From Gemmatimonadales bacterium (lineage in GTDB: Bacteria; Gemmatimonadota; Gemmatimonadetes; Gemmatimonadales; GWC2-71-9), in the NCBI GenBank assembly GCA_036769285.1, contig DAIPLK010000009.1, forward strand, positions 1 through 37,262: a stretch of 37,262 nt of DNA. The letters run 5' to 3'. This document shows, one piece after another, positions 5,740 through 36,713 of this stretch (within the stretch, counting starts at the first letter, position 1; every line of letters starts with the position of its first letter). The notes beneath the pieces were generated by a model, which did no database searches, had not been told where the DNA came from, and saw only the letters and a program-made list of their open reading frames with translations. The translations under genes and the position numbers were made by a program.

Positions 5740-5772
5740 TCCAGTACGACTCTTCTTGGCCTCTTCTCAGCA

Positions 5773-5845
5773 CTCCCGAGGAGGGACTCGAACCCCCGAC
5801 CCGGTGATTAACAGTCACCTGCTCTACCAGCTGAGCTACTCGGGA
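5773..5845 (-). tRNA. tRNA-Asn (anticodon GTT)
   Basis: Hand-folded 73-nt cloverleaf. Acceptor stem is TCCCGAG/CTCGGGA, D-arm GCTC-AGCTGGTA-GAGC, anticodon arm GGTGA-CTGTTAA-TCACC, T-arm GGGGG-TTCGAGT-CCCTC, and the discriminator is G. CCA is not encoded. Confidence 0.93.
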
Positions 5846-5889
5846 AGGATGCCGACGCAACGTCGCTTGAGCCTCGTGCGCCGGGCCCA

Positions 5890-19548: not shown

Positions 19549-20399
19549 TGCCCGTCACCAGTGGTATCGACGTCGGCAGCGGCGCGGTCAAGGCCGTGGT
19601 CATGGGCACCGATGACCAGGGCGAGGAGCGGCTGCTCGCCAAGGTGTCGTCGCGCATCCGCCGCCGGGAGGTGGCCAAGGTGGTGGACGAGGTATTCCAC
19701 GCCGCGGTCGAGCAGGCCGGGGCCGGCGAGCCAGACTACATCGCCACGACCGGAGAGGGCGAGGAAGTTCCGTTCGCGACCGGGCATTTCTACGGCATGA
19801 CGACCCACGCCCGGGGAGCCCTGTACCTCGAACCCCGGGCTCGCGCAGTGCTGGACGTGGGGGCCCTCCACACGCGCGCGGTGGCGATGGACGGGCGGGG
19901 CCGGGTCCTGGACTACAAGATGACGAGCCAGTGCGCCTCCGGATCCGGCCAGTTCCTGGAGAACATCGCCCGCTATCTCGGCGTCTCCCAGGAGGAGATC
20001 GGCCCGCTCTCCCTCCAGGGAAAGAATCCTGAGAAGGTCAGCTCGATCTGCGCGGTGCTGGCGGAGACCGACGTGATCAACATGGTCTCGCGCGGCATCA
20101 CCACCCCCGACATCCTGCGCGGGGTGCACGACAGCATGGCGGACCGGTTCGCCCGGTTGCTTCGCTCCCTTCAGTTCGACGGCGCGATCTTCGTGAGCGG
20201 CGGGCTCGCCTCCGACCTGGGGCTGCGGGCGGCCCTGAAGGATGCGCTCGACAAGCGGATGCCCGCGGGCACCGCGAGCCGGGAGGTGGTCACCCACCCG
20301 GACGCCATCTTCGCGGGGGCCATCGGCGCGGCGCTTCACGGCGGCTTCCGCCATCGGAAGCTGCAACGGGCCGCCGGAACCCGGGCCGAAGCCGACTAG
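19548..20399 (+). CDS. bcrD: Class I benzoyl-CoA reductase subunit D (BcrD/BadG type ATPase)
   Basis: 283 aa with GIDVGSGAVKAV, SQCASGSGQFLE and SSICAVLAETDV, and a degenerate second phosphate loop (LDVGALHTRAV) as in BcrD-type subunits. There is a TGATG overlap with bcrA. Confidence 0.88.
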   Translation: MPVTSGIDVGSGAVKAVVMGTDDQGEERLLAKVSSRIRRREVAKVVDEVFHAAVEQAGAGEPDYIATTGEGEEVPFATGHFYGMTTHARGALYLEPRARAVLDVGALHTRAVAMDGRGRVLDYKMTSQCASGSGQFLENIARYLGVSQEEIGPLSLQGKNPEKVSSICAVLAETDVINMVSRGITTPDILRGVHDSMADRFARLLRSLQFDGAIFVSGGLASDLGLRAALKDALDKRMPAGTASREVVTHPDAIFAGAIGAALHGGFRHRKLQRAAGTRAEAD

Positions 20400-20417: not shown

Positions 20418-21296
20418 ATGGGAATCACCGCCATCGGGTACCACCGGCCGGCCACCCTGGCCGATGCCTGCGAGCTGGGCAGGCGGCTGGGGAGCGAGGG
20501 CGCGTTCCTGGCCGGCGGCACCGAGCTGCTGCCGGATTACCAACGGGAGCGCGAGACGGCGCTGCACCTGATCGCGCTCGATGCCATCGAGGAGCTCCGC
20601 GGCATCCGGATCGACGGCAACCAGCTCCGAATCGGTGCCCTGACGACGGTCGCCCAGGTCGCGGCATCACGGCAGGTGCGGGAGTGGTTTCCGGCCCTGG
20701 CCGAGGCCGCGGGCGCCATCGGGAGTCCCCCCATCCGGAGCCGCGCCACGATCGGGGGCAATTTCTGCCGCGCGGTGCCGTGCGCCGACACCCCACCGGC
20801 CGCCGTCGTTGGCGGGGCGCGGGTGCGACTCATGGGGCCCGAGGGAACCCGCGAGTTCGAGGCCGCGCACTTCTTCGTCGCACCACGCCGAACCGTGCTC
20901 CAACCGGGCGAGCTGCTGGTCGAGATCGTGATTCCGGAGCAGCCCGCGCTTTCGGGCGCGAGCTACCAGCGCTTCGCCCGCCGGCGCGGCTCCGCCCTGC
21001 CGGTCGCGGCCGTGGCAGCGCGGCTGGAGTTCGCTGATGGCAAGATCACCGGCGCCCGAATCGCACTCGGCGCGGTCGCCCCGGTCCCACTGCTGGCTCA
21101 ACGCTCGGCGGCGGTCGTGGTGGGGGAGTCGCCCACGGCGGAGCTGTTTGCGCTGGCCGCCGCGGTGAGCGCCGAGGAGGCGCTGCCCATTTCCGACGTT
21201 CGCGGCTCGGCCGCCTTCCGGCGCGAGTTGGTAGCGGTCCTGACACGGCGAGCCCTCGCCGAGGCGGCGCGGCGAGCCGGGGTGAAGCCGGCATGA
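20418..21296 (+). CDS. Xanthine-dehydrogenase/CO-dehydrogenase-family FAD-binding (medium) subunit
   Basis: 292 aa with FLAGGTELLP, RSRATIGGNF and C-terminal SDVRGSAAFRRELV, typical of CoxM/XdhB-type FAD subunits. Confidence 0.88.
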   Translation: MGITAIGYHRPATLADACELGRRLGSEGAFLAGGTELLPDYQRERETALHLIALDAIEELRGIRIDGNQLRIGALTTVAQVAASRQVREWFPALAEAAGAIGSPPIRSRATIGGNFCRAVPCADTPPAAVVGGARVRLMGPEGTREFEAAHFFVAPRRTVLQPGELLVEIVIPEQPALSGASYQRFARRRGSALPVAAVAARLEFADGKITGARIALGAVAPVPLLAQRSAAVVVGESPTAELFALAAAVSAEEALPISDVRGSAAFRRELVAVLTRRALAEAARRAGVKPA

Positions 21297-24157: not shown

Positions 24158-24792
24158 CCATGCGCGGAGGCCTCGAGGTCATGGAGCCGCGGCGCAACCG
24201 CCCGCGGGCCGCGACGCAACAGAAGCTCGATCATCTCCTGGCGACGGCGGCCGCGCTGATCGCGGAGAAGGGGTACCGGGCGACATCGTTGCGCGACGTG
24301 AGCCGGGCGATCGGAGTGAGCGTCGCCGGACTCTACCACTATTTCACCAGCAAGGAGGACCTGCTCTACCAGCTCCAGTACCGGACCTTTGCGGCGCTGC
24401 TCCAGGCGCAGGAGGAGCGGGCCAGCGAGCCGGGCACGCCGGAGGACCGCTTCCGGCGGCTGATCGTCGGGCACCTGGAATTCTTCGCCAGCCACCCCAA
24501 CGAGCTCAAGCTGTGCACCTACGAATTAGAGTCCCTCAAGGGGGACGCGTTCGCCACGGTGGAGGCGCTGCGCCGTCGGTACTACCGGCTGGTCACCTCG
24601 GTCGTCGCCGAGCTGATGGAGGGGTGGGGCCCCGATGGCGCGGAATCGAAGCGGAGCCGGCACGCCGCGCTGTTCGTCTTCGGGATGCTGAACTGGATGT
24701 TCATGTGGTATGACCCCACGCGCCACGGGACCCTGGCGGACATCGGCGACGAAATGGTCGAGTTCGCCCTGAACGGTCTCCGGCGCAGGTGA
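24154..24792 (+). CDS. TetR/AcrR-family transcriptional regulator
   Basis: N-terminal HTH KGYRATSLRDVSRAIGVSVAGLYHYFTSKEDLL. ATG 24154 overlaps the upstream stop (ATGA); ATG 24181 is an alternative. Confidence 0.88.
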   Translation: MTMRGGLEVMEPRRNRPRAATQQKLDHLLATAAALIAEKGYRATSLRDVSRAIGVSVAGLYHYFTSKEDLLYQLQYRTFAALLQAQEERASEPGTPEDRFRRLIVGHLEFFASHPNELKLCTYELESLKGDAFATVEALRRRYYRLVTSVVAELMEGWGPDGAESKRSRHAALFVFGMLNWMFMWYDPTRHGTLADIGDEMVEFALNGLRRR

Positions 24793-24808: not shown

Positions 24809-26020
24809 ATGCAATTCACGGATGTGTGGATCCCCTACGGTGCCTACTGGGCATCGCCCTTCGCAGCGTGGCAAGGAAGCTTCGCCACCTTGCCGCCGAT
24901 CCCCTTCGCGGCGGACCTGGCGAAGCGGGCCCTGGCGGAGCGCGGGATCGCGCCGGCGCAGATCGATGGGCTGTGCCTCGGTACCACGGTCCCCAGCCAG
25001 CACTCGTTCTACGGCGCTCCATGGTTCGCCGGGCTCGCGGGCCTGTGTCATCTGAGCGGCCCCACGATCAACCAGGCGTGCGCGACCGCCGTCCGCTGCG
25101 TGGTGCAGGGCGCCCAGGAGCTGGCCGCCGGCAGCGCCACGGTCTACCTCGCGGCCACCGCCGACCGGACCAGCAATGGTCCCCACCTCTACTACCCGAA
25201 TCCGGGCGGCGCCGGCGGCACCGGGCAGTCGGAGGATTGGGTGCTGGACAACTTCGGGCGCGACCCCTACGCCGGGAACTCGATGATCCAGACGGCGGAG
25301 AACGTGGCCCGTGAAGCGGGCATCAGCCGGGAGGCGCAGGAGGAGATGACGCTCCTCCGCTATCGCCAATACCAGCGCGCCCTGGAGCACGACGGCGCGT
25401 TTCAGGCGCGCTACCTGGTCCGGCCGGTGGAAATTCGGGACGGGCGGGGACGCAAGGTCCTGAAGACGGTGACCGGCGACGAGGGCATCCATCCGACGAC
25501 CGGCGAGGGTCTGGCGGCGCTCCGGCCGGTGATCGAGGGAGGCAGCGTGACCTTCGGTACCCAGACCCATCCGGCGGACGGGAATGCCGGGTGCGTTCTG
25601 GTGCGCGGCCGCGACCGGGCCCGCGCGCTCGGGAAGGACGGCGGTGTGGGGATCCAGCTGCTCTCCTACGGAGAGGCCCGGGTGAAACCGGGATTCATGC
25701 CGATGGCGGTGGCACCCGCGGCGCGGCTGGCGCTCGAACGCGCCGGCATCACCGCCGGCGACCTCGCCAGTGTCACCACGCACGCTCCGTTTGCCGTCAA
25801 CGATGTTTACCTCGCCCGGGAGCTGCGGCTCGACCCCGAGCGGATGAACCGCTACGGGTGCTCGCTCGTGTGGGGCCATCCGCAGGGGCCCACCGGGCTG
25901 CGCTCGATCATCGAGCTGATCGAGGATCTGGCCCTGCTGGGCGGCGGCTACGGTCTGTTCACCGGCTGCGCCGCCGGGGACAGCGCGGCCGCGGTGGTAC
26001 TCAAGGTCACGGAGAACTGA
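24809..26020 (+). CDS. Thiolase-family acetyl-CoA C-acyltransferase
   Basis: 403 aa with nucleophile context INQACATA, WGHPQGPTG (His) and C-terminal FTGCAAGDSAAAVVLKV. The RBS GGAGGA lies upstream. Confidence 0.85.
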   Translation: MQFTDVWIPYGAYWASPFAAWQGSFATLPPIPFAADLAKRALAERGIAPAQIDGLCLGTTVPSQHSFYGAPWFAGLAGLCHLSGPTINQACATAVRCVVQGAQELAAGSATVYLAATADRTSNGPHLYYPNPGGAGGTGQSEDWVLDNFGRDPYAGNSMIQTAENVAREAGISREAQEEMTLLRYRQYQRALEHDGAFQARYLVRPVEIRDGRGRKVLKTVTGDEGIHPTTGEGLAALRPVIEGGSVTFGTQTHPADGNAGCVLVRGRDRARALGKDGGVGIQLLSYGEARVKPGFMPMAVAPAARLALERAGITAGDLASVTTHAPFAVNDVYLARELRLDPERMNRYGCSLVWGHPQGPTGLRSIIELIEDLALLGGGYGLFTGCAAGDSAAAVVLKVTEN

Positions 26021-26043: not shown

Positions 26044-27015
26044 ATGGGAGAGTTCGCCTCCAGGGCCGCCGGCGACTTCGACTTCCGGGACATCCTCTAC
26101 CAGAAGGGGGATATGACGGCCCGGATCACGCTCAACCGGCCGGAGGCCTACAACGCGTACCGGACCGGGACGCTCCGTGAGCTGATCACCGCGTTCGAGG
26201 ACGCGTCGAACGACGACCAGGTCGGCGTGATCGTGTACACCGGCGCGGGAGACAAGGCGTTCTGCACCGGCGGCGACGTCAAGGAGTACGCCGAGCTCTA
26301 CACCAGGCGTCCCCGGGATTACTGGAAGTACATGGGGCTGTTCAGCAGGTACATCGAGAGCATTCTCCACAGCGGCAAGGTCACCATCGCCCGGATCAAC
26401 GGGATGGCGGTCGGCGGGGGCAACGAGTCGCAGCTCGCCTGCGACCTCGCCGTGATGGCGGACGATGCCTACATCGCCCAGGTCGGAACCAGTGTGGGCA
26501 GTGTCGCGGCCGGTGGCGCCACCCAGTGGCTCTCGATTCACGTGGGGGACCGCCGCGCGCGCGAGATGCTGTTCCTCAACCCGCGCATCCGGGCGCAGCA
26601 GGCGCTGGAGTGGGGACTGGTGAACCGGGTGGTGCCGCGGGAGAAGCTCGACGAGGAGGTGCAGAAGCTCGTCGACGGCGTCCTGGACAAGTTCTCGGAG
26701 TGCACTCGCTACACCAAGCAGCAGCTGAACTACTGGAAGGAGTCGGCCTGGTACGCGACCATCGGCCATGCCCGCGATTGGCTCTCGACCCATTTCACGT
26801 CCCTGGAGCCGTACGAGGGGATGCAGGCCTTCGTGGAGAAGCGGAAGGCCGACTACCGGGGTCTCCGGCGGAGGGCGGCGGAGGGAGGGAGCAGCGAGTT
26901 CCTGTGGGGACCGTACACGCAGAGCTGCGGCGCCTGCGGGGCGAAGGGGATTCCCGAAGGCTTCACCTTCTGCGGCGCCTGCGGGGGCGCACTCGGCAAG
27001 CGGCATGGCGCCTGA
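26044..27015 (+). CDS. Crotonase-superfamily ring-cleaving hydrolase candidate (Oah/BamA-like, BadI/MenB-related) with C-terminal zinc-ribbon tail
   Basis: 323 aa with LNRPEAYNAYRT, GAGDKAFCTGGDVKEYAELYTRRPRDYWKYMGLF, INGMAVGGGNE and AQVGTSVGSV. It resembles my recollection of 6-oxocyclohex-1-ene-1-carbonyl-CoA hydrolase more than a generic hydratase. An extra tail ends in CGAC-x11-CGAC. I chose ATG 26044 (after AAAGGA); the longer 25591 ORF overlaps the thiolase. Confidence 0.75.
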   Translation: MGEFASRAAGDFDFRDILYQKGDMTARITLNRPEAYNAYRTGTLRELITAFEDASNDDQVGVIVYTGAGDKAFCTGGDVKEYAELYTRRPRDYWKYMGLFSRYIESILHSGKVTIARINGMAVGGGNESQLACDLAVMADDAYIAQVGTSVGSVAAGGATQWLSIHVGDRRAREMLFLNPRIRAQQALEWGLVNRVVPREKLDEEVQKLVDGVLDKFSECTRYTKQQLNYWKESAWYATIGHARDWLSTHFTSLEPYEGMQAFVEKRKADYRGLRRRAAEGGSSEFLWGPYTQSCGACGAKGIPEGFTFCGACGGALGKRHGA

Positions 27016-27751
27016 CCCGGGGGCACGGGTCGCCCTGGTAACCGGCGCCGGGCGCGGCATCGGCGCGGCGATCGCGCGGGAACTCGCCCGGGACGGATGT
27101 GACGTGGCGCTGGTGGACAAGGCGACGGCGCCGGCGGAAACGGTGGCCGGAGAGATCCGGCGGCTGGGGCGCCGGGCGGTTGTCCTCGACGCCGACGTGA
27201 CCAGCCTCACGGCGGCGGGGGCCTCTGTCGGCGCGGTATTGGCCGAGCTGGGCCGGCTCGACCTGCTGGTCTGCAACGCCGGGATCAGCCGCGACGCCGT
27301 GGTCTGGAAGATGACGGAGGAGGCGTGGGACGAGGTCATCGCGGTCAACCTGAAGGGGTGCTTCAATTATTGTCGCGTGGTGGCCCCGATCTTCCGGGCG
27401 CAGCGTCGCGGCCGGATCGTCACCGTCGCATCGATCAACGCCCTCCGGGGCAAGGCGGGCCAGGCCAACTACACCGCCTCGAAGGCGGGCGTGGTGGCGC
27501 TGACCCGGACCCTGGCGCGGGAGCTGGGACGGTCGGGGGTGACCGTCAACTGCGTCGCGCCGGGAATGGTGCGCACGGCGATGACCGACGCTCTGCCGCC
27601 GCAGATTCTCGACGCCGCCATCGCCGAGTCGGCCCTGGGGCGAATCGGCGAGCCCGAGGACGTGGCCCACGCCGTCGCGTTCCTCTGTTCCGACCGCGCG
27701 CGGCACATCACCGGCGCCGTCCTCCAGGTGGACGGCGGACAGTTCATGTGA
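27005..27751 (+). CDS. Short-chain dehydrogenase/reductase (FabG/BadH-like)
   Basis: 248 aa with TGAGRGIGAAIA, NAGI and the catalytic YTASKAG; C-terminus ITGAVLQVDGG. The start lies 11 nt inside the upstream gene. Confidence 0.9.
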   Translation: MAPDPGARVALVTGAGRGIGAAIARELARDGCDVALVDKATAPAETVAGEIRRLGRRAVVLDADVTSLTAAGASVGAVLAELGRLDLLVCNAGISRDAVVWKMTEEAWDEVIAVNLKGCFNYCRVVAPIFRAQRRGRIVTVASINALRGKAGQANYTASKAGVVALTRTLARELGRSGVTVNCVAPGMVRTAMTDALPPQILDAAIAESALGRIGEPEDVAHAVAFLCSDRARHITGAVLQVDGGQFM

Positions 27752-27767
27752 GAGGACACGGCGCCGC

Positions 27768-28541
27768 ATGACGGACGCGACCGGCACGGTGGGGTACCAG
27801 GTGCGCGACGACGTCGCCTACGTGACGCTCGGCGCGCCGCCCCTCAACCTGCTCACCGCGGCGATGATGGGCGATCTGGCGGCGGCGCTGGAGCGGGCCG
27901 GAGACGACCGGACCCTGAAGGCGATCGCGGTGACGTCGGCGGGGCGGGCGTTTTCGGCCGGCGCCGACGTGGGCGAGCACCGGCCGGAGCAGGCGCCGGC
28001 CATGATCGAGGGATTCAGCCGGTTGTTCCACGCGCTCGGCGCGAGCGAGCTGCCGCTGGTCATGGCGGTCGACGGCGCGGCACTCGGCGCTGGGTTCGAG
28101 CTGGCGCTGATGGCCGACGTGCTGCTCGCCAGCGAGCGGGCCAGCTTCGGCCAGCCCGAGATCCGCCTGGGCTTCTTCGCGCCGGTGGCAGTCGCCTGGC
28201 TCCCGGCCCGCATCGGGATCGCCCGGGCGATCGAGGTCACCAGTACCGGGCGGACCTACACCGCGGGGGAAATGCAGGTCATGGGGCTGGTGTCGCGGGT
28301 GGTAACCCCGGAGGAGCTGCCGGCGGCGCTGGAGGCGGTGCTGACCGACATGCGCCGGGCCAGCCCGGTCGTCATGCGGATGAACGTGCGGCTCGCGCGG
28401 CAGCTGCAGGGCCGTCCGTTCGAGGAGGCGCGGCGGGAGGCGGAGCGGGTGTTCCTGGAGGAGTTGATGGCGACGGAGGACGTGCGCGAAGGCATCGCCG
28501 CGTTCTACCAGAAGCGTCGCCCGGCATGGAAGAATCGCTGA
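27768..28541 (+). CDS. Enoyl-CoA hydratase (Dch/BadK-like candidate)
   Basis: 257-aa crotonase fold with SAGRAFSAGADVGEH, VDGAALGAGFELALMADV and EGIAAFYQKRRP. The context suggests dienoyl-CoA or cyclohexenoyl-CoA hydratase. Confidence 0.85.
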   Translation: MTDATGTVGYQVRDDVAYVTLGAPPLNLLTAAMMGDLAAALERAGDDRTLKAIAVTSAGRAFSAGADVGEHRPEQAPAMIEGFSRLFHALGASELPLVMAVDGAALGAGFELALMADVLLASERASFGQPEIRLGFFAPVAVAWLPARIGIARAIEVTSTGRTYTAGEMQVMGLVSRVVTPEELPAALEAVLTDMRRASPVVMRMNVRLARQLQGRPFEEARREAERVFLEELMATEDVREGIAAFYQKRRPAWKNR

Positions 28542-28551
28542 GGAGGACCGG

Positions 28552-30843
28552 GTGCGGATCCTGATCGTGGGAGCGGGAGCGCTGGGAGGGTTCGTCGGGG
28601 CCACCCTGGCGCGCGCCGGGGAGGACGTGACCCTGCTCGACATCAAGGAATCCCAGGCCCGGTTCCTCAACGACGCCGGGCTGGTGATCACCCGGGCCGG
28701 GCAGGAGGAAGCCTGTATCCCGGTGCACGTGGTCACCTCGGTCGAGGGCCTGGAGCCGTTCGACCTGGTGTTCGTCGCGGTCAAGACCTACGAGACCGAG
28801 GACGCGATGCGCGACGTGATGCCGGTGACGGGGCCGCACACCCGCTTCCTCTCCATGCAGAACGGCATCGGCAGCGCCGAGGTCATGGCGCGGTACGTCG
28901 GCCCCGAGCGGGTGGTCTGCGGCATCACCTACCACAGCATCCAGCATGCGGGCCCGGGCCGGCTGAATTATCGGGTCGGGATCAAACCGTTCCAGATCGC
29001 CCCCTTCGTCGGGGAGATCACCCCCGAGATCGAGGCGATCGGGGAGGTGTTCCGCCGGGCCGGGCTGGAGACGGCCACCGTCCCCAACATCGACGACGCC
29101 GTCTGGGAAAAGGTGCTGCACAACGCGGTGATCAACCCGGTCTCCGCGGTCACCGGACTGACCTGCCGCGAGATCCTGGCGGACCCCGACCTGATCGCCT
29201 TCATGCGCGAGCTGACCCACGAGATCGTCGCCGTGATGCGCGCGCGGGGTGTCGCGATCGTCGACCCGGAAGACCCCTTCCGTCCGCTGCTCAGCTCGCT
29301 CCAGGCGCTGGGCAAGAACCGGCCGTCCATGTGGCAGGATCTCGCCCGCGGCAGGCGGACCGAGATCGACGCGATCAACGGCGCGGTCGTCGCCGAGGCG
29401 GAGCGCCTCGGGCTCCAGGCCCCCCACTGCAGGGCCCTGGTGCGGTTCATCCACTCCCGCGAACGGCAGAAGTTCCTCAACCGCCAGGCGATCGTCCACG
29501 AACTGGGACTCGACGGCGGGGAGGAGCGAGCGGGGGACACCCCAGGGGCGGTGCGGCCGGAACGGCCGGTGCGCGCCACATCGCTGGGAGCGGACGGCGG
29601 CATGCCCCCCGGGGGGCCGCCGCTGGAGACCACCCGCCGACTGAAGGAATTGATGCGCGCCTACTATCGCGACCTCGAGGCCGCCTCGGACGATCCGGGG
29701 CGCCTGGTCGCGGCCTGCTCGGGCTTCTCGCCGGTCGAGATCGTCCGGGCGCTCGACGTGACGCCGTACTTCCCCGAAAATCACGCGGCGCTGATCGGGG
29801 CCAGCCGGCAGGTCGGGCCCTATCTCGCGCGGGCGACCGCCGAAGGATTCTCCCAGTTCGCGAGCTCGGCGATGCGAGCCGACATCGGCGCGCTGCTCGA
29901 GGGCAGCAGCCCCCTCGTGGGGGTGCACGGGATCAAGGGGCCGCCGCGCCCCGATGTCGTGATGTACAGCACCAACACCGGCCACGAGCTGCTCCGCTGG
30001 TTCGAGTTCTACGGCGCCCACTATCGCGTACCGGTGCTCGGCCTCCACCCGCCGCCGGCGCTGGACCAGCTGGAGCAGATGGACATCGACGCGGCGGCGC
30101 ACCAGATGTGGCGACTGGCGTCCGGGCTCGAGCAGGCGACCGGGCGCACCCTGGACGTGCACCGCCTGAGCGCCGTGGTCGGCCACACCGCCCAGGCCGC
30201 CGCGCTCTGGGGCGAGATCCTGGACCTCGCCCGCACGGTGCCCGCGCCCTTCACCTGGTTCGACACGCTGGTGCACGTCGCGCCCATGGTGGTCCTCCGG
30301 GGCACACCCGAGGCCGTAGCCTACTACCGCGAGCTGAAGGACGAGATCGAGGAGCGGGTCGCCCGGGGCATCGCGGCCGTGCCCAACGAGGCGTTCCGCT
30401 TCTACTGGGATGGACCCCCGATCTGGTGCGCGCTCCGGCCGCTCGCCCGGCTGTTCGGCGAATCGGGCATCGCGATCGTGGCGTCCACGTTCTCGACCGT
30501 CTTCGCCCTGTCCGGGTTGGATCCCAACGATCCCATCGAGAGCATGGCCCGGGCCTACACCGGGGTGTTCGGCAACCGGTCCGAGGCCTACAAGACGGCG
30601 TTCCTGGCCCGGAAGTTCGAGCAATACGGGGTGGATGCCGCGGTCTACCACGACTGCCGCACCACTCCCGAGGCGAGCCACGTACGTTACGGGCTGGCCC
30701 ACCGGCTGGAGCGCGCGACCGGCATCCCCGGATTCGTGGTGGAGGCCGACTCGCACGACCTGCGGCTCTTCTCCACGGAGCGTCTGCAAGGACTGATCGC
30801 CGGGTTTCTCGAGCGGCAGACCGCGCCCAGCGAGGTCCGGTAG
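28552..30843 (+). CDS. Fusion protein: ketopantoate-reductase (PanE/ApbA) domain + HGD-D (BcrB/C, HgdA/B-like) core subunit
   Basis: 763 aa. Residues 1-310 or so carry VGAGALGG, SMQNGIG, WEKVLHNAVINP and SMWQDLARGRRTEIDAING, a complete KPR signature. A Gly/Pro/Arg-rich linker follows. Residues from about 360 onward are paralogous to the 31696 gene (YFPENHAALIGASR, WFEFYG, YHDCRTT). The GTG start follows GAGGAGGA. Confidence 0.85.
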   Translation: MRILIVGAGALGGFVGATLARAGEDVTLLDIKESQARFLNDAGLVITRAGQEEACIPVHVVTSVEGLEPFDLVFVAVKTYETEDAMRDVMPVTGPHTRFLSMQNGIGSAEVMARYVGPERVVCGITYHSIQHAGPGRLNYRVGIKPFQIAPFVGEITPEIEAIGEVFRRAGLETATVPNIDDAVWEKVLHNAVINPVSAVTGLTCREILADPDLIAFMRELTHEIVAVMRARGVAIVDPEDPFRPLLSSLQALGKNRPSMWQDLARGRRTEIDAINGAVVAEAERLGLQAPHCRALVRFIHSRERQKFLNRQAIVHELGLDGGEERAGDTPGAVRPERPVRATSLGADGGMPPGGPPLETTRRLKELMRAYYRDLEAASDDPGRLVAACSGFSPVEIVRALDVTPYFPENHAALIGASRQVGPYLARATAEGFSQFASSAMRADIGALLEGSSPLVGVHGIKGPPRPDVVMYSTNTGHELLRWFEFYGAHYRVPVLGLHPPPALDQLEQMDIDAAAHQMWRLASGLEQATGRTLDVHRLSAVVGHTAQAAALWGEILDLARTVPAPFTWFDTLVHVAPMVVLRGTPEAVAYYRELKDEIEERVARGIAAVPNEAFRFYWDGPPIWCALRPLARLFGESGIAIVASTFSTVFALSGLDPNDPIESMARAYTGVFGNRSEAYKTAFLARKFEQYGVDAAVYHDCRTTPEASHVRYGLAHRLERATGIPGFVVEADSHDLRLFSTERLQGLIAGFLERQTAPSEVR

Positions 30844-30874
30844 GGCCCGGCGGCGAGGAAGGAGGCACCTCAGG

Positions 30875-31699
30875 ATGGAACCGGAGACCAGGATCGCGGC
30901 CGGCGTCGATGCCGGAACCGAGTGCGTCAAGGCCGTGGTGGTCGCCGACGGGGGCCGGGTGCTGGGCCGGGCGGTGCACCCGACGCGGGGCCACTTCCAG
31001 GCCTGCGCCTACGAGGTGCTGGCGGCGGCGCTCGACGACGCTCAGCTGCGGGAGCAGGATCTGATCGGACTCGGCGCGACCGGGTTCGCCTCGAGCTGCG
31101 TCCCCGGCGCGACGCTGACGGCGACCGAGACGGCTTGCCACGCGCTCGGGGCCTTCCACCACTGCAACCACGCGATGACCCTGGTGGACATCGGAGGCCG
31201 CGACCCCCATCTCATCACGGTGGACGCTGCCGGTCGGCCGGTGGAAGCCCGCAGTGTGCGGCGTTGCGCGGTGGGGGTCGGTAGCTTCCTGATGTTCGCG
31301 GCGCGCCATCTCGACGTTCCCCCCACGGGGCTGCAGGATCTGGCGGCGACGGCAAAGCAGGCGGCACGGGTGAGCAGCTACTGTTCGGTCTTTTCCAGCA
31401 ACGAGGTCCTCGAGCGGCTCCGCGAGGGGGCAACGCGGGAGGAGATCGCGTTGGGGAGCATGCAGTCCATTGCGGAACGGATCCTCGAGATGGGCGGCCT
31501 GGAGCCCCCGGTGATGGTGTCCGGCGGGGTGGCCGAGTACTTCCCGGGCGTGCTGCACGCCCTGGAGTCGCTCTCGGGAATCCCCGTCCGGCCCGTCCCC
31601 GAGCCGATGCTGGCCGGCGCGCTGGGCGCGGCCTTGAAGGTGCTCCGGGTGCCGGTCGTCCCGCTGAGCGCGGCCGCGACCCGAAAGGCGGCGCCATGA
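30875..31699 (+). CDS. BcrAD/BadFG/HgdC-family ATPase, divergent (BcrD-like partner)
   Basis: 274 aa with GVDAGTECVKAV, DIGGRDPHL (degenerate phosphate loops), and cluster-ligand contexts RRCAVGVGSFL and SSYCSVFSSNE. The RBS GGAAGGAGG lies upstream. Confidence 0.85.
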   Translation: MEPETRIAAGVDAGTECVKAVVVADGGRVLGRAVHPTRGHFQACAYEVLAAALDDAQLREQDLIGLGATGFASSCVPGATLTATETACHALGAFHHCNHAMTLVDIGGRDPHLITVDAAGRPVEARSVRRCAVGVGSFLMFAARHLDVPPTGLQDLAATAKQAARVSSYCSVFSSNEVLERLREGATREEIALGSMQSIAERILEMGGLEPPVMVSGGVAEYFPGVLHALESLSGIPVRPVPEPMLAGALGAALKVLRVPVVPLSAAATRKAAP

Positions 31700-32940
31700 G
31701 CGACATCCGCAGCACCGGTGCGCTCCGCGAGACGATGGGAGCCTACTACCGTTCGCTGGGGGATGCCGCGGAGCGGAAGACGGCTCCGGTCGCCTGGTGC
31801 TCCAGCGTCGGACCGACCGAACTGCTCCGCGCGCTCGGCTTCGCGGTGTTCTTCCCGGAGAACCACGCCGCGATGCTGGGGGCATCGCGCACCGCCCAAC
31901 GCTACATGCCGCTGGCGCATGCGCAGGGCTACTCCCAGGATGTCTGCTCCTATCTCAGCAGCGACATCGGGGCCTACCTCGCCGGCGAAACCCCGCTCTC
32001 GGCGTTCGGTCTCTCCGGCACCCCGCGCGCCGACGTCCTGGTGTTCAACACCAACCAGTGCCGCGACATCCGGGACTGGTTCGAGTGGTACGGGCGGAAG
32101 TGGGGCGTCCCGGTGATCGGCGTGCGCTCCCCGCGCTCGATCGACGACGTGACCGAGAGCGACATCGACGGGGTGGCCCGGCAGATCGAGGGCCTGGTGC
32201 CGCCGCTCGAATCGGTGGCGGGCCGGCGGCTGGACCCGGGCCGTCTGGCGGAGGTAGTCGGCCGGTCTCGACAGTGCTCCGACCTCTGGGAGGCATGCCT
32301 CCTGACCGCGGCGCACCATCCGGCGCCGCTCACCTTCTTCGACGGCACCATCCACATGGGACCGGCCGTCGTGCTGCGGGGTGACGAGGCGGCCAACGCC
32401 TATTACCGGACCCTCCTCGCCGAGCTCCAGGATCGCGCGGCGACCGCCACCGGCGCCGTGCCGGGCGAATCGTACCGCCTGTACTGGGAGGGCATGCCGA
32501 TCTGGGGGCGGCTGCGCGCGCTTTCGGCGGTGTGCATCGAGTTCCGCACCGCGGTCGTGGCCTCGACGTACTGCAACAGCTGGATCTTCTCCGCCCTCGA
32601 CGCGGCCGACCCGATCCGCTCGATGGCGCGCGCCTCGCTCGAGCTGTTCATCACCCGGTCCGAAGCGCCCAAGGAGCGTTACATCGAGGAGATGGTCGGC
32701 CGGTACGGGGTCGACGGCATCGTGTTCCACGACTGCCGGACCTGCTCCAGCAACTCGAACACGCGCTACGGCATGCCGCGGCGCCTGTCGGAACGGCTGG
32801 GCATCCCGACGCTGATCCTCGACGGCGACGTCAACGACCTCCGTTGCTTCAGCGACGAGCAGTCCCGCACCAACCTGGAGGGGTTCATCGAGCAGATCGC
32901 GGACGCCCGCGCGGCGGGCCGGCTGGCGGAGCGGCGGTGA
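31696..32940 (+). CDS. HGD-D family core subunit (BcrB / 2-hydroxyacyl-CoA dehydratase alpha-like)
   Basis: 414 aa with WCSSVGPTELLRALGF, FFPENHAAMLGASR, QDVCSYLSSDIGAY, NTNQCRDIRDWFEWYG and FHDCRTCSSNSNTRYG. There is an ATGA overlap with the upstream ATPase. Confidence 0.85.
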   Translation: MSDIRSTGALRETMGAYYRSLGDAAERKTAPVAWCSSVGPTELLRALGFAVFFPENHAAMLGASRTAQRYMPLAHAQGYSQDVCSYLSSDIGAYLAGETPLSAFGLSGTPRADVLVFNTNQCRDIRDWFEWYGRKWGVPVIGVRSPRSIDDVTESDIDGVARQIEGLVPPLESVAGRRLDPGRLAEVVGRSRQCSDLWEACLLTAAHHPAPLTFFDGTIHMGPAVVLRGDEAANAYYRTLLAELQDRAATATGAVPGESYRLYWEGMPIWGRLRALSAVCIEFRTAVVASTYCNSWIFSALDAADPIRSMARASLELFITRSEAPKERYIEEMVGRYGVDGIVFHDCRTCSSNSNTRYGMPRRLSERLGIPTLILDGDVNDLRCFSDEQSRTNLEGFIEQIADARAAGRLAERR

Positions 32941-33737
32941 GCTACTGGGCCGGAATCGACTGCGGTTCGTGGGCCACCAAGGCGGTGGTCATCGACCAGG
33001 GTGCCCGCCTGCTCGGCAGCGGAGTCGCCCGCTCCGGCGCCGACCTGGCCGCGGCCGCGGAGCGGGCGTACACTCTGGCGTTGGCGCAGGCCGGCCGGGA
33101 CAGGGACGAGATGGCGGCTGTCTGGGCCACGGGGTTCGGAAGGCAATCGGTGGAGTTCGCGGACGGATCGAGAACCGAACTGGACTGTCACGGGCGGGGA
33201 GCCGCGTACTATGTGCGGGAGCCGGCCGTCGTGATCGACATCGGCGGCCAGGACGCCAAGGTGATTCGCCTCGACGCCGACGGCCGGCGTCTGGCTCACC
33301 GGATGAACCGCAAGTGCGCCGCCGGGACGGGGAGCTTTCTGGACGAGATCGCCCTCCGGCTCGGGATCGAGGTCTCCGATCTCGACCATCTCGCGGCGAC
33401 GGCCACCGAAAGCTTCGAGCTGTCCAGCTTCTGCACCGTCTTTGCCGGCACCGAGCTGTTGACTCTCATCCGCGCGGGCAAGCGCCCGGCCGACCTGGCT
33501 CGGGCTGCGTACCTGTCGCTGGTCAAGCGAGTGGCCGCCATGGACGTGTTCCAGGGACGAGTGGTGGCCACCGGGGGCGTCGTGGCCCACCACCCGACGA
33601 TGGTCCGGTTGCTGGGCGAGGAGCTCCGGGCGGAGATCGTGGTGCCGCCGCACCCGCAGGAGATCGGTGCGTTCGGCGCGGCCCTCGCGGCCCGGGAGGG
33701 CGCCGCGTCGGTGGGCCCGGCGATGGAGGGCGGATGA
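32937..33737 (+). CDS. BcrAD/BadFG/HgdC-family ATPase, canonical motifs
   Basis: 266 aa with GIDCGSWATKAV, DIGGQDAKVI, NRKCAAGTGSFLDE and SSFCTVFAGTE. The GTG start overlaps the upstream stop (GTGA). Confidence 0.85.
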   Translation: MSYWAGIDCGSWATKAVVIDQGARLLGSGVARSGADLAAAAERAYTLALAQAGRDRDEMAAVWATGFGRQSVEFADGSRTELDCHGRGAAYYVREPAVVIDIGGQDAKVIRLDADGRRLAHRMNRKCAAGTGSFLDEIALRLGIEVSDLDHLAATATESFELSSFCTVFAGTELLTLIRAGKRPADLARAAYLSLVKRVAAMDVFQGRVVATGGVVAHHPTMVRLLGEELRAEIVVPPHPQEIGAFGAALAAREGAASVGPAMEGG

Positions 33738-35620
33738 TAAGCTTGGCGGAGGCCGCCGTGCGGAACGGCCCGGAGGTCCACTCCACGATCGAGCCGATCG
33801 GCGAGCGCGAATCGGTCGGCGGGCTCCTGGCCCGCCAGGTCGAACACTTCCCCGAGGTCCCGGTCTTCGCGGAGCCCTGCGCCGGCCGGTTCCGGAAAGT
33901 GACGTGGTCCGAGTTCTGCCGCGAGGTCGTTGCGTTCGGCCGGTTCCTCTCGGCGTCGGGGATCGAGCGGGGGGACCGGGTCGCCATGTTCTCCCCCAAC
34001 CGGCGCGAGATGCTGGTCACCGAGTTCGCGACCATGAGCCTCGGTGCGATCTTCGTCCCCATCTTCCCGGGCTACGCCGCGGAGCAGGCCCGCGCCCTGG
34101 TGGCGCAGTGCCGTCCCACGGCGCTCGTGCTCCCCGGTCTGGAGCAGCTCGAGCGGACCGGGGTGCCACCGACCGCCCGCGTGGTGGTGACCTTCGAGCC
34201 GGTCGAGCCGTCGGCGTTCGAAACGGCGCGGGGGGTGACCGGCGCGGACCAGGTGCTGTTCGCCGATGCCCTTGCCCGCTTCGCCGTCGGCGGGGGCGAC
34301 CCCGCCCTGGCGGCATTCCTCGACCAGGCGGCGGCCGTGGATCCGAGCGACCCCGCCCTCATGATGTACACCTCGGGGACCAGCGGCCGGCTCAAGGGCG
34401 TCCTCCTCACCCACGACAACATCCTCTCCCAGCAGCGGGCGCTGTCGGCGATCTGGACCGTGTCGCCCGAGGACCGGTTCCTCTCCTACTTGCCCTGGCA
34501 CCACAGCTTCGGCGGCATCTTCGAGAAGTACACGGCGCTGTACCACGGGGCCACGCTCTACCTCGACGATTCCGCGGGAAAGGACTTCGACCGGCTCATC
34601 CGGAATTGGAAGGAAGTCCGCCCGACGATCTATTTCAGCGTGCCGAAGGTCTATCAGGAGCTGGTGGCGCACGCCCAGGCTCATCCCGAGGACGAGCGGG
34701 AGATCATCCACCCGGAGCTCCGCTTCGTCTTCACCGCGGCGGCGCCACTCCCCGCCAACCTCGCGGCGTTCTTTGCCGAGCGCGGGATCCCGGTGCTCGA
34801 AGGCTGGGGACTGACCGAAACCTCTCCGTGCTGCACCGTCACCGACCCGGCCGAGCCGCGCACCGTGCCGGGGATGGTCGGGTATCCGATTCCCGGAGTG
34901 AGGCTCTACCTCGCCCCGGACGGGGAGATCCTGGTCCAAGGTCCCAACGTCATGCGGGGATACTTCGACGATCCGGAGGCGACCGCCAAGGTGCTTCCCG
35001 GCGACGGGTGGTTCCGCACGGGGGACCTCGGGTCGCTCATCGGCGCGGGGCTGAGGCTCCAGGCGCGGAAGGACCGCATCTTCAAGATGTTCAACGCGGA
35101 AAAGATCATCCCCACCGAGCTGGAGAACCGGCTCGCCGGGATGAATCCGTATATCCGCCATGTGATCGTGGTGGGTCAGGGGCGGAGTCACCTCGCCGCG
35201 CTCATCTACCCCGATTACTTCCGCATCGCCCAGGAGTTCGGTGAGGATCGAGCCACGGCCGATCGGGTGGTGAAGGAGTCCATCCGCGATACCGTGCTCG
35301 CCTTCAACCGCGACCACCCGATCCCCTACGAGCACATCCTCGCGCTGGCGGTGATCACCCGGGAGCTTTCGATCGAGCACAACGAGCTGACTCCGTCCCT
35401 CAAGCTGCGGGTCAGCAACGTCCTCGAGCAGGCGGAGCCCTACCTCGAGGCCGTGTACGAGCCGAGCGCGGATTGCGACTGCACCTTCCTGCGAAAGGTC
35501 ATGCGGATGGACCCGGACACGCGCCAGTGTTTCGCGGGGCTCGAGTGCACGCTGGATCACTGCCACGAATGCGGCAACCTGCTGTTCGGGGACTCGGCCG
35601 ACAGCGTCACGAACCCCTGA
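33734..35620 (+). CDS. AMP-forming acyl-CoA synthetase (FadD/ACSL-like) with Cys-rich C-terminal extension
   Basis: 628 aa with MMYTSGTSGRLKGV, EGWGLTETS, WFRTGDLG and ELTPSLKLR. An extra 51-aa tail follows (SADCDC...QCF...ECT...HCHEC). There is an ATGA overlap with the upstream ATPase. Confidence 0.88.
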   Translation: MISLAEAAVRNGPEVHSTIEPIGERESVGGLLARQVEHFPEVPVFAEPCAGRFRKVTWSEFCREVVAFGRFLSASGIERGDRVAMFSPNRREMLVTEFATMSLGAIFVPIFPGYAAEQARALVAQCRPTALVLPGLEQLERTGVPPTARVVVTFEPVEPSAFETARGVTGADQVLFADALARFAVGGGDPALAAFLDQAAAVDPSDPALMMYTSGTSGRLKGVLLTHDNILSQQRALSAIWTVSPEDRFLSYLPWHHSFGGIFEKYTALYHGATLYLDDSAGKDFDRLIRNWKEVRPTIYFSVPKVYQELVAHAQAHPEDEREIIHPELRFVFTAAAPLPANLAAFFAERGIPVLEGWGLTETSPCCTVTDPAEPRTVPGMVGYPIPGVRLYLAPDGEILVQGPNVMRGYFDDPEATAKVLPGDGWFRTGDLGSLIGAGLRLQARKDRIFKMFNAEKIIPTELENRLAGMNPYIRHVIVVGQGRSHLAALIYPDYFRIAQEFGEDRATADRVVKESIRDTVLAFNRDHPIPYEHILALAVITRELSIEHNELTPSLKLRVSNVLEQAEPYLEAVYEPSADCDCTFLRKVMRMDPDTRQCFAGLECTLDHCHECGNLLFGDSADSVTNP

Positions 35621-35636
35621 GGGGGATGCGCAGACG

Positions 35637-36713
35637 ATGACGCCGGTCAGGGAAACCTGGGACCGTTGGGTGATGACGAGCCCCAACGCGCCATTCGAAC
35701 GGCGCGAGACGCCCCGGCGGGCGCCCGGGCCCGGCGAGGCGGTGGTGGAGGTGGCCGGGTGCGGGGTCTGCCACACGGACCTGTCGTTCCTCTATCAGGG
35801 GGTCAAGACCCGCCAGCCGCCGCCGCTCGTGCTCGGCCACGAGATCAGCGGATTCGTGAGGGAGGTCGGGAACGGCGCCGATTCGGGACTGGTGGGTCGC
35901 GCGGTCGTCGTCCCCGCGGTGCTCCCCTGCGGTGAATGCGACCTCTGCCGCGCCGGGCTCCGGACCATCTGCCGCCGCCAGGTCATGCCGGGGAACGACC
36001 GGGACGGCGGCTTCGCTTCTCACTTGGTGGTTCCCGCCAGGTTCCTCTGTCCCGTCTCGGAGTCGGTCCTCGCCGAACACGACCTGTGGCAGCTGGCGGT
36101 CGTGTCGGACGCGGTGGCGACGCCGTTCCAGGCGGTCAAGCGCTCCGGGCTCGCCGCGGGTGAGCTGGCGGTGTTCGTCGGCGTCGGCGGGATCGGCATC
36201 CACGGCGTGCAGGTTGCCGCAGCGGTCGGGGCCACCGTCATCGGGCTCGACCTGGACGACCAGAAGCTGGAGCAGGCGGCCTCCGCCGGCGCGCATGCGA
36301 CGCTCAACGTGAGGGGCGTCCCGGGGAAGGAGGTCCGGAAGCAGGTGAAGGCCCAGGCCGAGGCGCTCGGCGCACCGGCCCACTGCTGGAAGATCTTCGA
36401 GATGTCTGGTACCGCCGCCGGGCAGGAGACCGCGTTCTCCCTCCTGGGATTCGGGGCGTCACTGGCCGTGGTCGGCTTCACCCAGGACCGGGTCGAGATC
36501 TGCCTTTCCAACCTCATGGCCTTCGATGCCGTGGCACGGGGAAACTGGGGAGCCGATCCGCTGCTGTACCCCGAGCTGCTCGGGTGGGTTGCCGACGGCC
36601 GGATCAAGGTGAAGCCGTTCGTCGAGCGGCACCCGCTCGACCGCATCAACGCGATCTTCGAAGCGGCCCACCAGGGCCGCCTCCTCCGGCGAGTCGTGCT
36701 GGTCCCTTCCTGA
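35637..36713 (+). CDS. Zn-dependent medium-chain alcohol dehydrogenase (Had-like candidate: 6-hydroxycyclohex-1-ene-1-carbonyl-CoA dehydrogenase)
   Basis: 358 aa with AGCGVCHTDLSF, LGHEISG, structural-Zn motif CGECDLCRAGLRTIC and Rossmann motif VFVGVGGIG. The Had assignment comes from context and from recalling that Had is a Zn-ADH family member. An alternative start is at 35673. Confidence 0.85.
   Translation: MTPVRETWDRWVMTSPNAPFERRETPRRAPGPGEAVVEVAGCGVCHTDLSFLYQGVKTRQPPPLVLGHEISGFVREVGNGADSGLVGRAVVVPAVLPCGECDLCRAGLRTICRRQVMPGNDRDGGFASHLVVPARFLCPVSESVLAEHDLWQLAVVSDAVATPFQAVKRSGLAAGELAVFVGVGGIGIHGVQVAAAVGATVIGLDLDDQKLEQAASAGAHATLNVRGVPGKEVRKQVKAQAEALGAPAHCWKIFEMSGTAAGQETAFSLLGFGASLAVVGFTQDRVEICLSNLMAFDAVARGNWGADPLLYPELLGWVADGRIKVKPFVERHPLDRINAIFEAAHQGRLLRRVVLVPS

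Follow-up and report, generated by a model that had tools for sequence, protein, structure and literature searches.

Which enzyme is encoded by four consecutive genes that begin 8.15 kb after the end of bcrD, and thus 3′ of a bcrCBAD set, in the genome of a Gemmatimonadales bacterium (GTDB lineage Bacteria; Gemmatimonadota; Gemmatimonadetes; Gemmatimonadales; GWC2-71-9): a further benzoyl-CoA reductase (BCR), a 2-hydroxyacyl-CoA dehydratase (HAD), or a member of neither class? The window, i.e., the whole stretch of DNA analysed here, comprises 37,262 nucleotides (GenBank assembly GCA_036769285.1, contig DAIPLK010000009.1, positions 1 to 37,262 of the forward strand). Its four genes encode, in order, a fusion of a PanE/ApbA-type reductase domain to an HGD-D core domain (HGD1), a first BcrAD_BadFG-type ATPase (ATP1), a second HGD-D core (HGD2), and a second ATPase (ATP2). 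An earlier note, made from the sequence letters, had correctly placed this module about 8 kb 3′ of bcrCBAD and proposed it as an uncharacterised ATP-driven enzyme with a reductase-like set of subunits. We argue that the module may instead be a 2-hydroxyacyl-CoA dehydratase in which HGD2 would be the catalytic core, HGD1 an inactive partner to which the reductase is tethered, and ATP1/ATP2 a matched activator, with the product beta-oxidised to (4-hydroxy)benzoyl-CoA, a reading to which we assign a probability of about 0.4.

Searches with Pfam and NCBIfam hidden Markov models (with equivalog cut-offs used for orthology calls) confirmed the four open reading frames, their coordinates, plus strand, and core-ATPase-core-ATPase order (Table 1), and bore out the inventory of two HGD-D paralogs, two different BcrAD_BadFG ATPases, and a PanE fusion. 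Both HGD-D and both BcrAD_BadFG matches lie above the Pfam gathering scores, as befits the superfamily of class I BCRs and HADs (BCR-I/HAD), whose members combine a core of the HGD-D fold with an ASKHA ATPase in which two cysteines bridge a [4Fe-4S] cluster. None of the module proteins reaches the equivalog cut-off of any NCBIfam model for a known BCR or HAD subunit. The stop/start overlaps ATGA at 31696, GTGA at 32937, and ATGA at 33734 were read directly in the sequence, as the earlier note had it, and AGGAGG-like ribosome-binding sites precede 28552 and 30875. The four frames can be taken as coding because their GC content at third codon positions is 0.88-0.93 in a window of 70% GC.

The architecture is neither chance nor an assembly artefact, because the same fusion recurs widely. 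A homologue search returned 398 matches at E ≤ 1e-5, and the matches listed form at least 120 clusters at 90% identity, all PanE plus HGD-D, 61-76% identical, and named at most "2-dehydropantoate 2-reductase". We collected 84 fusion loci, 80 from a one-genome-per-species scan and 4 others, all in metagenome-assembled genomes (MAGs), with hosts in Gemmatimonadota, Acidobacteriota, Krumholzibacteriota, Eisenbacteria, and Myxococcota including Anaeromyxobacter; by its best matches the window itself falls in Gemmatimonadota. The module is thus not special to this window; it is widespread yet unstudied. Full-text literature searches found no paper on the PanE::HGD-D fusion or the four-gene module, which also goes unmentioned in the Krumholzibacteriota BCR paper, and the expectation that no characterised enzyme has such a configuration held across the literature searched, the equivalog models, and the solved structures.

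The strongest clue to function lies in an asymmetry between the two cores. They were predicted to be paralogous, and paralogy stands: HGD1 and HGD2 share 44% identity, are each other's closest paralogs, and in neighbour-joining (NJ) trees with bootstrap form a group that excludes HadB, MbdO, and BcrB (100%), within which HGD1 forms one clade (100%) and all HGD2 another (95%). Equivalence does not stand. Across 84 HGD1 homologues (residue counts below likewise cover 53 HGD2, 78 ATP1, and 50 ATP2 homologues), the three cysteines of the [4Fe-4S] site are absent in 84/84, replaced by S/N/Q438, G477, and T/A/S705, and the D-x-C-x-Y motif is lost in all 84 as well (D82 to F and Y86 to A/E/G, in HGD2 numbering). 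In BzdO, the equivalent of the lost tyrosine, Tyr97, binds the thioester oxygen (PMC11971306). The fold motifs are still kept, and Foldseek comparison with solved structures matched HGD1 to HadB (3o3o_A, TMt 0.91) as well as to MbdO and BzdO. Given this loss of three cysteines and of the motif's D and Y on a retained fold, HGD1 appears to be a cluster-less, catalytically dead core, i.e., a pseudo-subunit, and since this holds in every homologue, the module is predicted to carry one core cluster only.

In HGD2, C84, C122, and C350 are kept in 53/53 homologues in a joint alignment. They correspond to BcrB C84/C119/C361 and align to BzdO C95/C128/C380 and to the HadB ligands, giving HGD2 the three-cysteine [4Fe-4S] site of a dehydratase-type alpha subunit, in which one iron position is open; E55 (the PEN glutamate) and Y86 (the thioester tyrosine) are retained too. 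Its best PDB matches are HadB (3o3m_A, 168 bits), MbdO (100), and BzdO (74), and pairwise it is 28% identical both to HadB (177 bits) and to the BcrB of the window (140-152 bits). Orthology to BcrB or BzdO fails by a wide margin, as HGD2 scores 128 against a cut-off of 487 for TIGR02260 and 72 against 449 for TIGR03191 (HGD1: 122 and 68). The NCBIfam models of HadC, BcrC, and BzdN matched neither core, and both cores are of the catalytic HadB/BzdO/BcrB type.

Two further candidates concerning HGD2 were rejected. A double-cubane cluster would call for the seven-cysteine motif CX19CX18-19CX29CX166-170CX32-34CX32C, which the cysteines of HGD2, at 35/84/122/293/350(/384), do not fit, and the NF040772 score is 38 bits against a cut-off of 350. 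BzdO His131 was tried as a reductase marker and dropped, as Phe occupies its place in MbdO and in the BcrB of the window. Separately, HGD2 has two extra invariant cysteines, C35 (31798-31800) and C293 (32572-32574), found in 53/53 linked and 13/13 stand-alone homologues. C35 aligns to BzdO S42, beside the pocket wall S44-A45-W46, and is also Cys in MbdO; a manual alignment can place C293 on the "EETC" cysteine of the double-cubane cluster protein (DCCP). The two residues may be what is left of a sub-cluster since lost, or they may act as catalytic thiols.

The two ATPases also differ from one another. ATP1 keeps the bridging-cluster cysteines C131 and C170 in 78/78 homologues, and its phosphate motifs are altered in a family-specific way (GTE(C)VK and (D/N)IGGRDP). 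ATP2 keeps DIGGQD and the cluster cysteines C127 and C166 in 50/50, and its PDB matches are HadI (4eht, 167 bits), MbdQ (149), and HgdC (145). The two are 35% identical and fall in separate clades, and ATP2 is 38% identical to HadI. By these features, ATP1 looks like a divergent HgdC/BcrD-like ATPase and ATP2 like a canonical activator, which recalls BcrD vs BcrA. The BcrA-type insertion is missing, as stated in the earlier note: both ATPases have about 270 residues, BcrA has 423, and the part of the BcrA model that the two match is confined to positions 225-396. An origin of ATP1 as a recent duplicate of ATP2 was considered, and the NJ tree was split on it (50/50).

The PanE domain of the fusion belongs to a recognisable family of reductases, with Rossmann and ApbA_C domains and the catalytic Lys, Glu, and Asn in place. 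It scores 266 bits against a cut-off of 141 for TIGR00745 and lies below all NCBIfam equivalog cut-offs for 2-dehydropantoate reductases, and among 12 diverse homologues GxGxxG, N104, K187, N191, N195, S259, and E271 are invariant. We take the catalytic residues to be equivalent to N98, K176, and E256 of the Escherichia coli enzyme. Foldseek returned ketopantoate reductase (5hws, TMt 0.9) and D-mandelate dehydrogenase (3wfi). A single-chain AlphaFold2 model of the fusion, of moderate quality (pLDDT 76, pTM 0.53) and with an inter-domain orientation that is not interpretable, predicts two domains joined by a disordered linker of 45 residues, the consensus of which varies among homologues. The public name "2-dehydropantoate 2-reductase" is probably wrong as a function for the fusion, the gene context being unrelated to pantothenate.

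How tightly the four genes belong together was judged in the 74 of 84 loci with enough sequence. ATP1 adjoins the fusion in every locus that reaches far enough. HGD2 lies directly 3′ of ATP1 in 46/74 loci, and all four genes are contiguous in the same order in 42, which answers the call for a search of other genomes. The overlapping junctions are conserved as well (ATP1 to HGD2 in 31/46 loci, HGD2 to ATP2 in 35/45). In the other 28 of the 74, HGD2 is not directly past ATP1: in 9, the HGD2-ATP2 pair occupies another place in the locus, in many cases on the other strand, and in 19 "solo" loci the available sequence past ATP1 (1.3-9 kb) has no HGD2 or ATP2. Three of these 19 end inside a convergent ligase/symporter operon that bears HGD2-ATP2 in relatives, and comparison of solo with linked loci found no categorical difference in HGD1 or ATP1. 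The interleaved order is thus real, but it reflects two [core+ATPase] pairs that stand apart in many genomes; the module holds the class I BCR inventory of two unlike cores and two unlike ATPases, with gene pairs that are separable. In one Polyangiaceae locus (L083, 800-8744), the fusion, ATP1, HGD2, an ADP-forming ligase, a symporter, and had lie in this order with no ATP2-like gene adjacent; here ATP1 may, in nature, serve the system as its sole ATPase.

Relatives of HGD2 outside the module provide a second line of evidence. Scanning metagenome contigs with the HGD2 alignment recovered HGD2-like genes at 54-62% identity, each with one ATP2-like neighbour and with no fusion or ATP1 within 8 kb; 13 such loci have at least 3.5 kb of flank on both sides, and all 13 keep C35, C84, C122, C293, and C350. 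Beside an HGD2-like core of 54-60% identity, six loci (L124, L139, L140, L156, L162, and L164) have an unfused PanE-like gene, L124 additionally has a family III CoA-transferase and a LarA-type 2-hydroxyacid racemase, and L144 and L160 have an ADP-forming ligase, a thiolase, a FadB-like hydratase/dehydrogenase, and IorA (arylpyruvate:ferredoxin oxidoreductase). By analogy, this company reads as a classical (R)-2-hydroxyacyl-CoA dehydratase context. Stand-alone and linked HGD2 interleave in the NJ tree, so some of the "stand-alone" genomes may hold the fusion elsewhere. The loci L124 (4263-12253) and L160 (4117-13588) represent a clade with a single core gene and a single ATPase gene, and such cores would be single-core, perhaps homodimeric, 2-hydroxyacyl-CoA dehydratases if no beta subunit is encoded elsewhere; to our knowledge, no single-core 2-hydroxyacyl-CoA dehydratase has been characterised.

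The genes around the module suggest what its substrate and product might be. A CoA ligase always lies 3′ of HGD2-ATP2 and comes in three types by lineage: a 628-aa AMP-forming ligase in Gemmatimonadota, an unrelated 531-aa AMP-forming ligase in Myxococcota, and an ADP-forming ligase with a sodium:solute symporter (SSF) elsewhere. That different ligase types fill one position argues that HGD2 acts on a CoA ester formed by ligation from a free acid that the cell takes up. A trio of hydratase, dehydrogenase, and thiolase stands close to the module across all phyla, in most loci reaching far enough upstream, in other phyla as an SCP-x-type thiolase with DUF35 or a FadB-like fusion, and such a trio fits an enoyl-CoA product, which would need precisely these activities.

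Around this core, the window holds an operon-like aromatic array in the order bcrCBAD, molybdenum (Mo) enzyme resembling 4-hydroxybenzoyl-CoA reductase (4-HBCR), TetR, thiolase, crotonase, short-chain dehydrogenase/reductase (SDR), hydratase, module, ligase, and had (Table 1). In most phyla, the module keeps company with the Mo enzyme, TetR, SDR, hydratase, and had. The first two of these are conserved beside it in most non-Anaeromyxobacter loci, and had lies directly 3′ of it in most loci. Anaeromyxobacter-type loci have a FadB-like gene and a thiolase instead, with no 4-HBCR-like enzyme and no had. In the Myxococcota loci L081 and L078, an IorA-like gene (TIGR03336, 523 bits) flanks the full module. 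The crotonase matches the Oah, BadI, and MenB models equally (182-189 bits), all far below cut-off, and the best named match of the hydratase ECHb is dienoyl-CoA hydratase (153 bits vs a cut-off of 292), while Had is a clear ortholog; ring-opening steps in this lineage may use non-orthologous enzymes.

Table 1 Coordinates of the four-gene module, the domains of its fusion protein, and the neighbouring genes in the window
Feature	Position	Strand	Evidence
PanE::HGD-D fusion, 763 aa	28552-30843	+	ApbA/ApbA_C and HGD-D
PanE/ApbA-type NAD(P)H 2-oxoacid reductase domain, residues 1-306	28552-29469	+	ApbA 125 bits, ApbA_C 119 bits
Flexible linker, residues 311-355	29482-29616	+	pLDDT < 50, no secondary structure (AlphaFold2)
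HGD1, cluster-less HGD-D domain, residues 356-763	29617-30843	+	HGD-D 164 bits (residues 392-754)
ATP1, 274 aa	30875-31699	+	BcrAD_BadFG 113 bits; TIGR00241 143 bits (cut-off 125)
HGD2 core, 414 aa	31696-32940	+	HGD-D 200 bits
ATP2, 266 aa	32937-33737	+	BcrAD_BadFG 159 bits; TIGR00241 207 bits
AMP-forming acyl-CoA ligase, proposed maker of the CoA ester substrate	33734-35620	+	AMP-binding 261 bits
had (6-hydroxycyclohex-1-ene-1-carbonyl-CoA dehydrogenase)	35637-36713	+	TIGR03201 449 bits vs 339
bcrCBAD	15840-20399	+	C, B, and D above equivalog cut-offs; A 576 vs 578
4-HBCR-like Mo enzyme	20418-24157	+	
TetR regulator	24154-24792	+	
Thiolase	24809-26020	+	
Oah/BadI/MenB-like crotonase (ECHa)	26044-27015	+	
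SDR	27005-27751	+	
Enoyl-CoA hydratase (ECHb)	27768-28541	+	

Several neighbours are of interest in their own right. The Mo enzyme is atypical: its [2Fe-2S] gamma part (TIGR03193, residues 6-150) is fused N-terminally to alpha (TIGR03194, residues 184-933, 939 bits vs a cut-off of 994), and its FAD subunit, of 292 aa with 3 Cys only, aligns end to end with CO-dehydrogenase CoxM and with 4-HBCR beta (1rm6_B) only to residue 123, so that the [4Fe-4S] loop by which 4-HBCR takes in low-potential electrons is missing. This form is conserved beside the module in most phyla. Divergent from bcrC lies a FadB/FadJ-like gene (13652-15706, minus strand) with reversed domain order, the 3-hydroxyacyl-CoA dehydrogenase first and the hydratase last, and its product is 37% identical to that of a gene directly beside the module in Myxococcota L081. 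Just past had, a hemerythrin-like reading frame (MRAIEILMQEHRNI...) starts at 36735 on the plus strand, and L001 likewise has a hemerythrin gene past its had. Rfam and tRNA scans of the window found nothing regulatory near the module; a tRNA-Asn (GTT) at 5772-5846 on the minus strand was the sole Rfam/ARAGORN match in the window.

Among known systems, the (R)-2-hydroxyisocaproyl-CoA dehydratase HadBC with its activator HadI of Clostridioides difficile (3O3M, 4EHT) provides the best solved matches of HGD2 (HadB) and ATP2 (HadI), and HadB and HGD2 have in common the three-cysteine [4Fe-4S] site, the PEN glutamate, and the thioester tyrosine. The logic of D-2-hydroxyacid dehydrogenase, CoA activation, dehydratase, and activator, which HadBC shares with the phenyllactate dehydratase FldBC/FldI, FldH, and FldA of Clostridium sporogenes, recurs in the module as a linked 2-oxoacid reductase (the fused PanE domain) and a CoA activation enzyme (the adjacent ligase). 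Enzymes of the PanE family yield D/(R)-2-hydroxy acids, which is the stereochemistry used by HAD enzymes. The differences are also clear: HadB is only 28% identical to HGD2; the Had partner subunit is beta-type, whereas that of the module is an alpha-subunit paralog; the partner core is fused here to the 2-oxoacid reductase, which is PanE-type instead of a D-2-hydroxyacid dehydrogenase of LdhA/FldH type; a CoA ligase takes the place of the CoA-transferase; and the Had hosts are Clostridia, whereas the module is hosted by Gemmatimonadota, Acidobacteriota, Krumholzibacteriota, and Myxococcota MAGs. From PanE/ApbA enzymes and D-mandelate/D-2-hydroxyacid dehydrogenases (5HWS, 1KS9, 3WFI), with which it shares fold (TMt ~0.9) and catalytic Lys/Glu/Asn, the PanE domain differs in its fusion to HGD-D, its scores below the 2-dehydropantoate reductase equivalogs, and its non-pantothenate context.

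Class I BCRs (BcrCBAD, BzdNOPQ, MbdONQP; 8S02, 9G87, 9GAI) likewise have two cores and two unlike ATPases, one canonical and one divergent; HGD2 aligns along its whole length with MbdO and BcrB, the three cysteines coinciding, and the module stands in a benzoyl-CoA gene cluster. These reductases, however, have a BzdN/BcrC subunit with a six-cysteine [8Fe-9S] cluster, whereas the models of that subunit are unmatched in the module, which further differs in that both cores are O/B-type, the order is interleaved, the BcrA insertion is missing, a PanE domain is fused, and scores lie far below the equivalog cut-offs. Class I BCRs combine [4Fe-4S] with [8Fe-9S], and a Birch reductase needs the BzdN-type [8Fe-9S] subunit for electron storage; HADs retain a [4Fe-5S] remnant in the beta subunit, and the BCR-I/HAD family diversified through sub-cluster loss (PMC11971306). 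The DCCP/DCCP-R (6ENO, 7YYL) and YjiM/YjiL systems have one core and one ATPase, homodimer on homodimer, as in stand-alone HGD2+ATP2, and this layout is the presumed ancestor of the duplicated module; DCCP has the seven-cysteine motif, whereas HGD2 lacks it, has five invariant cysteines, and matches DCCP at 24 bits in the C-terminal half only. Judged from its protein sequences, the module sits within the BCR-I/HAD superfamily but lacks defining features of both HADs (a cluster-bearing beta subunit, a single activator) and class I BCRs (the [8Fe-9S] subunit, orthology).

From the domains, cysteines, gene order, conservation, and context observed, we infer the following chemical steps. The PanE domain would use NAD(P)H to convert a 2-oxo acid, likeliest an arylpyruvate (4-hydroxyphenylpyruvate or phenylpyruvate), to the (R)-2-hydroxy acid, or else the 2-hydroxy acid would be imported directly; the 3′ ligase would then form the CoA ester. 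The thioester would be bound by HGD2 at the three-cysteine [4Fe-4S] cluster, the bridging [4Fe-4S] cluster of the ATPases would inject one electron at the expense of ATP, and the resulting ketyl radical would expel the alpha-hydroxyl, so that an enoyl-CoA (cinnamoyl- or 4-coumaroyl-CoA) would leave and the electron be recycled. Neighbouring hydratase, dehydrogenase, and thiolase could convert it to (4-hydroxy)benzoyl-CoA and acetyl-CoA, the former entering the Mo-enzyme, BcrCBAD, and Had route of the same cluster. HGD1 would fill the partner place in the core dimer and tether the reductase via the 45-residue linker, and ATP1 would be the ATPase protomer matched to HGD1; the interleaved order would be a duplicated [core+ATPase] unit, and the particle HGD1/HGD2 plus ATP1/ATP2 would descend from a one-core, one-ATPase ancestor. 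The linked genes for the 4-HBCR-like enzyme, BCR, Had, and IorA suggest that the substrate is aromatic. The sequence 4-hydroxyphenylpyruvate/-lactate to 4-coumaroyl-CoA to 4-hydroxybenzoyl-CoA to benzoyl-CoA has been written only as a hypothesis (PMC13416013).

Several observations weigh against this dehydratase. First, the gene pairs are separable, both in the 19/74 loci with fusion and ATP1 only and in the HGD2+ATP2 pairs that exist without a fusion within 8 kb. Second, known HADs have a beta subunit with a [4Fe-4S] or [4Fe-5S] cluster of its own ([4Fe-5S] in HadC), and the partner core of the module has none at all. Known HADs also use a single activator gene, whose product is a homodimer, and the HGD2-alone relatives have one ATPase gene, whereas the module has two unlike ATPase genes, whose sister relation has 50% NJ bootstrap. 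Third, HGD2 being about equidistant from HadB and BcrB, sequence similarity by itself does not settle dehydratase vs reductase. Fourth, with dienoyl-CoA hydratase as the best named match of ECHb and with a true Had, the companions (ECHb, SDR, thiolase, and ECHa) could all serve the lower benzoyl-CoA pathway instead of side-chain beta-oxidation. Genes for an aminotransferase or a ferredoxin were not seen, and it is context alone that points to 4-hydroxyphenylpyruvate/-lactate as the proposed substrate.

One alternative, which we regard as unlikely, is an ATP-driven enzyme of the BCR kind that would reduce or dehydroxylate an aryl- or dienoyl-CoA (e.g., a hydroxylated benzoyl-CoA) with two electrons, acting as a heterotetramer whose PanE domain reduces the keto tautomer of the product. 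Two unlike ATPases, one canonical and one divergent, are what a class I BCR has, but a BCR needs a second cluster to handle two electrons and the partner core offers no [8Fe-9S] or other one; a one-electron redox-neutral mechanism fits better, as there is no second core cluster to store electrons. HGD1 scores slightly higher to BcrB than to HadB, yet HGD2 remains far below the BcrB and BzdO equivalog cut-offs given above. The module lies between a dch-like gene and had, near bcrCBAD and the 4-HBCR-like enzyme, many loci have no other BCR within 10 kb, and a ligase and symporter for a free acid adjoin HGD2, all of which would suit a reductase; the nearest relatives, however, occupy dehydratase-type contexts (LarA, CoA-transferase III, unfused PanE, IorA). 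C35 and C293 are near the expected substrate pocket and could donate a proton or hydrogen atom. In its active-site motifs, the PanE domain is like free 2-oxoacid reductases, which speaks against this alternative. The reductase-like inventory in the earlier note is thus correct as to two cores and two unlike ATPases, while the reductase reading is weakened by the single core cluster and the dehydratase-type relatives. A dehydratase is favoured by the missing second cluster together with the fused PanE domain, the adjacent ligase, and the gene company of relatives, and an (R)-2-hydroxyacyl-CoA dehydratase is the most likely role, a ring reductase less so.

HGD1 has no cluster to reduce, yet ATP1 keeps its cluster cysteines in every homologue, and this is awkward for another improbable reading, namely two independent systems in a shared operon, with an HGD2 homodimer and its ATP2 activator as the dehydratase and fusion plus ATP1 in some other role, for example as a 2-oxoacid reductase joined to a pseudo-enzyme domain that binds CoA esters or has a regulatory task, or as an adaptor for another redox partner. 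The 9 loci with a distant or opposite-strand HGD2-ATP2, the 19 with fusion and ATP1 only, and the 13 well-flanked metagenome loci with HGD2 and ATP2 only are what such independence would produce, but at least 58 of the 74 informative loci have HGD2-ATP2, or the operon carrying them, nearby, and the ATP1/HGD2 stop/start overlap recurs in 31/46. Sub-clades are congruent in the HGD2 and ATP2 trees and in the HGD1 and ATP1 trees, and ATP2 is as near to HadI (38%) as to ATP1 (35%), as expected of separate units; HGD2, however, has its nearest paralog in HGD1, and it is from such a paralog that a heterodimer partner usually arises. That the same dehydratase acts on a non-aromatic substrate (e.g., from 2-oxoadipate, 2-oxoglutarate, or 2-oxoisocaproate), with ordinary beta-oxidation of the product and the aromatic genes as mere neighbours, is more improbable still, for although Anaeromyxobacter-type loci have the full module with FadB-like gene and thiolase and without 4-HBCR-like enzyme or had, the ligases resemble fatty-acid/medium-chain ligases, and the best solved relative of HGD2 is the leucine-pathway HadB, IorA lies beside the module in two Myxococcota loci and beside HGD2 relatives in L144 and L160, and outside Anaeromyxobacter linkage to the 4-HBCR-like enzyme, TetR, had, and BCR genes is tight.

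A bolder reading, which we consider doubtful, is that the module forms one undescribed BCR-I/HAD heterotetramer, with a single [4Fe-4S] core, a cluster-free reductase-bearing paralog, and a heterodimeric ATPase, that would open a new anaerobic route from aromatic 2-oxo and 2-hydroxy acids (tyrosine, phenylalanine, aryllactates) to 4-hydroxybenzoyl- and benzoyl-CoA in the soil and sediment phyla Gemmatimonadota, Acidobacteriota, Krumholzibacteriota, and Myxococcota, or that would couple ketyl-radical chemistry to hydride transfer in a new ATP-driven reductive dehydroxylation.

New here are the cluster-less HGD1, the spread over phyla, and the two separable pairs. The module is conserved and mechanistically informative, but it is built from known parts, its proposed function being drawn from context alone. 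In public databases, the name "2-dehydropantoate 2-reductase" is probably a mis-annotation for hundreds of proteins. If the dehydratase reading is true, the series of cluster losses described for this family (PMC11971306) would become one step longer, from two [8Fe-9S] in DCCP through [8Fe-9S]+[4Fe-4S] in BCR and [4Fe-5S]+[4Fe-4S] in HAD to none+[4Fe-4S] in the module, and a homomeric core/ATPase pair would have become a hetero-complex by duplication of a two-gene unit. It would also place oxygen-sensitive ketyl-radical dehydratase chemistry in phyla that are abundant in soils and sediments and have not been linked to it so far, and would provide a testable new link from aromatic amino acids and aryllactates to the benzoyl-CoA pathway.

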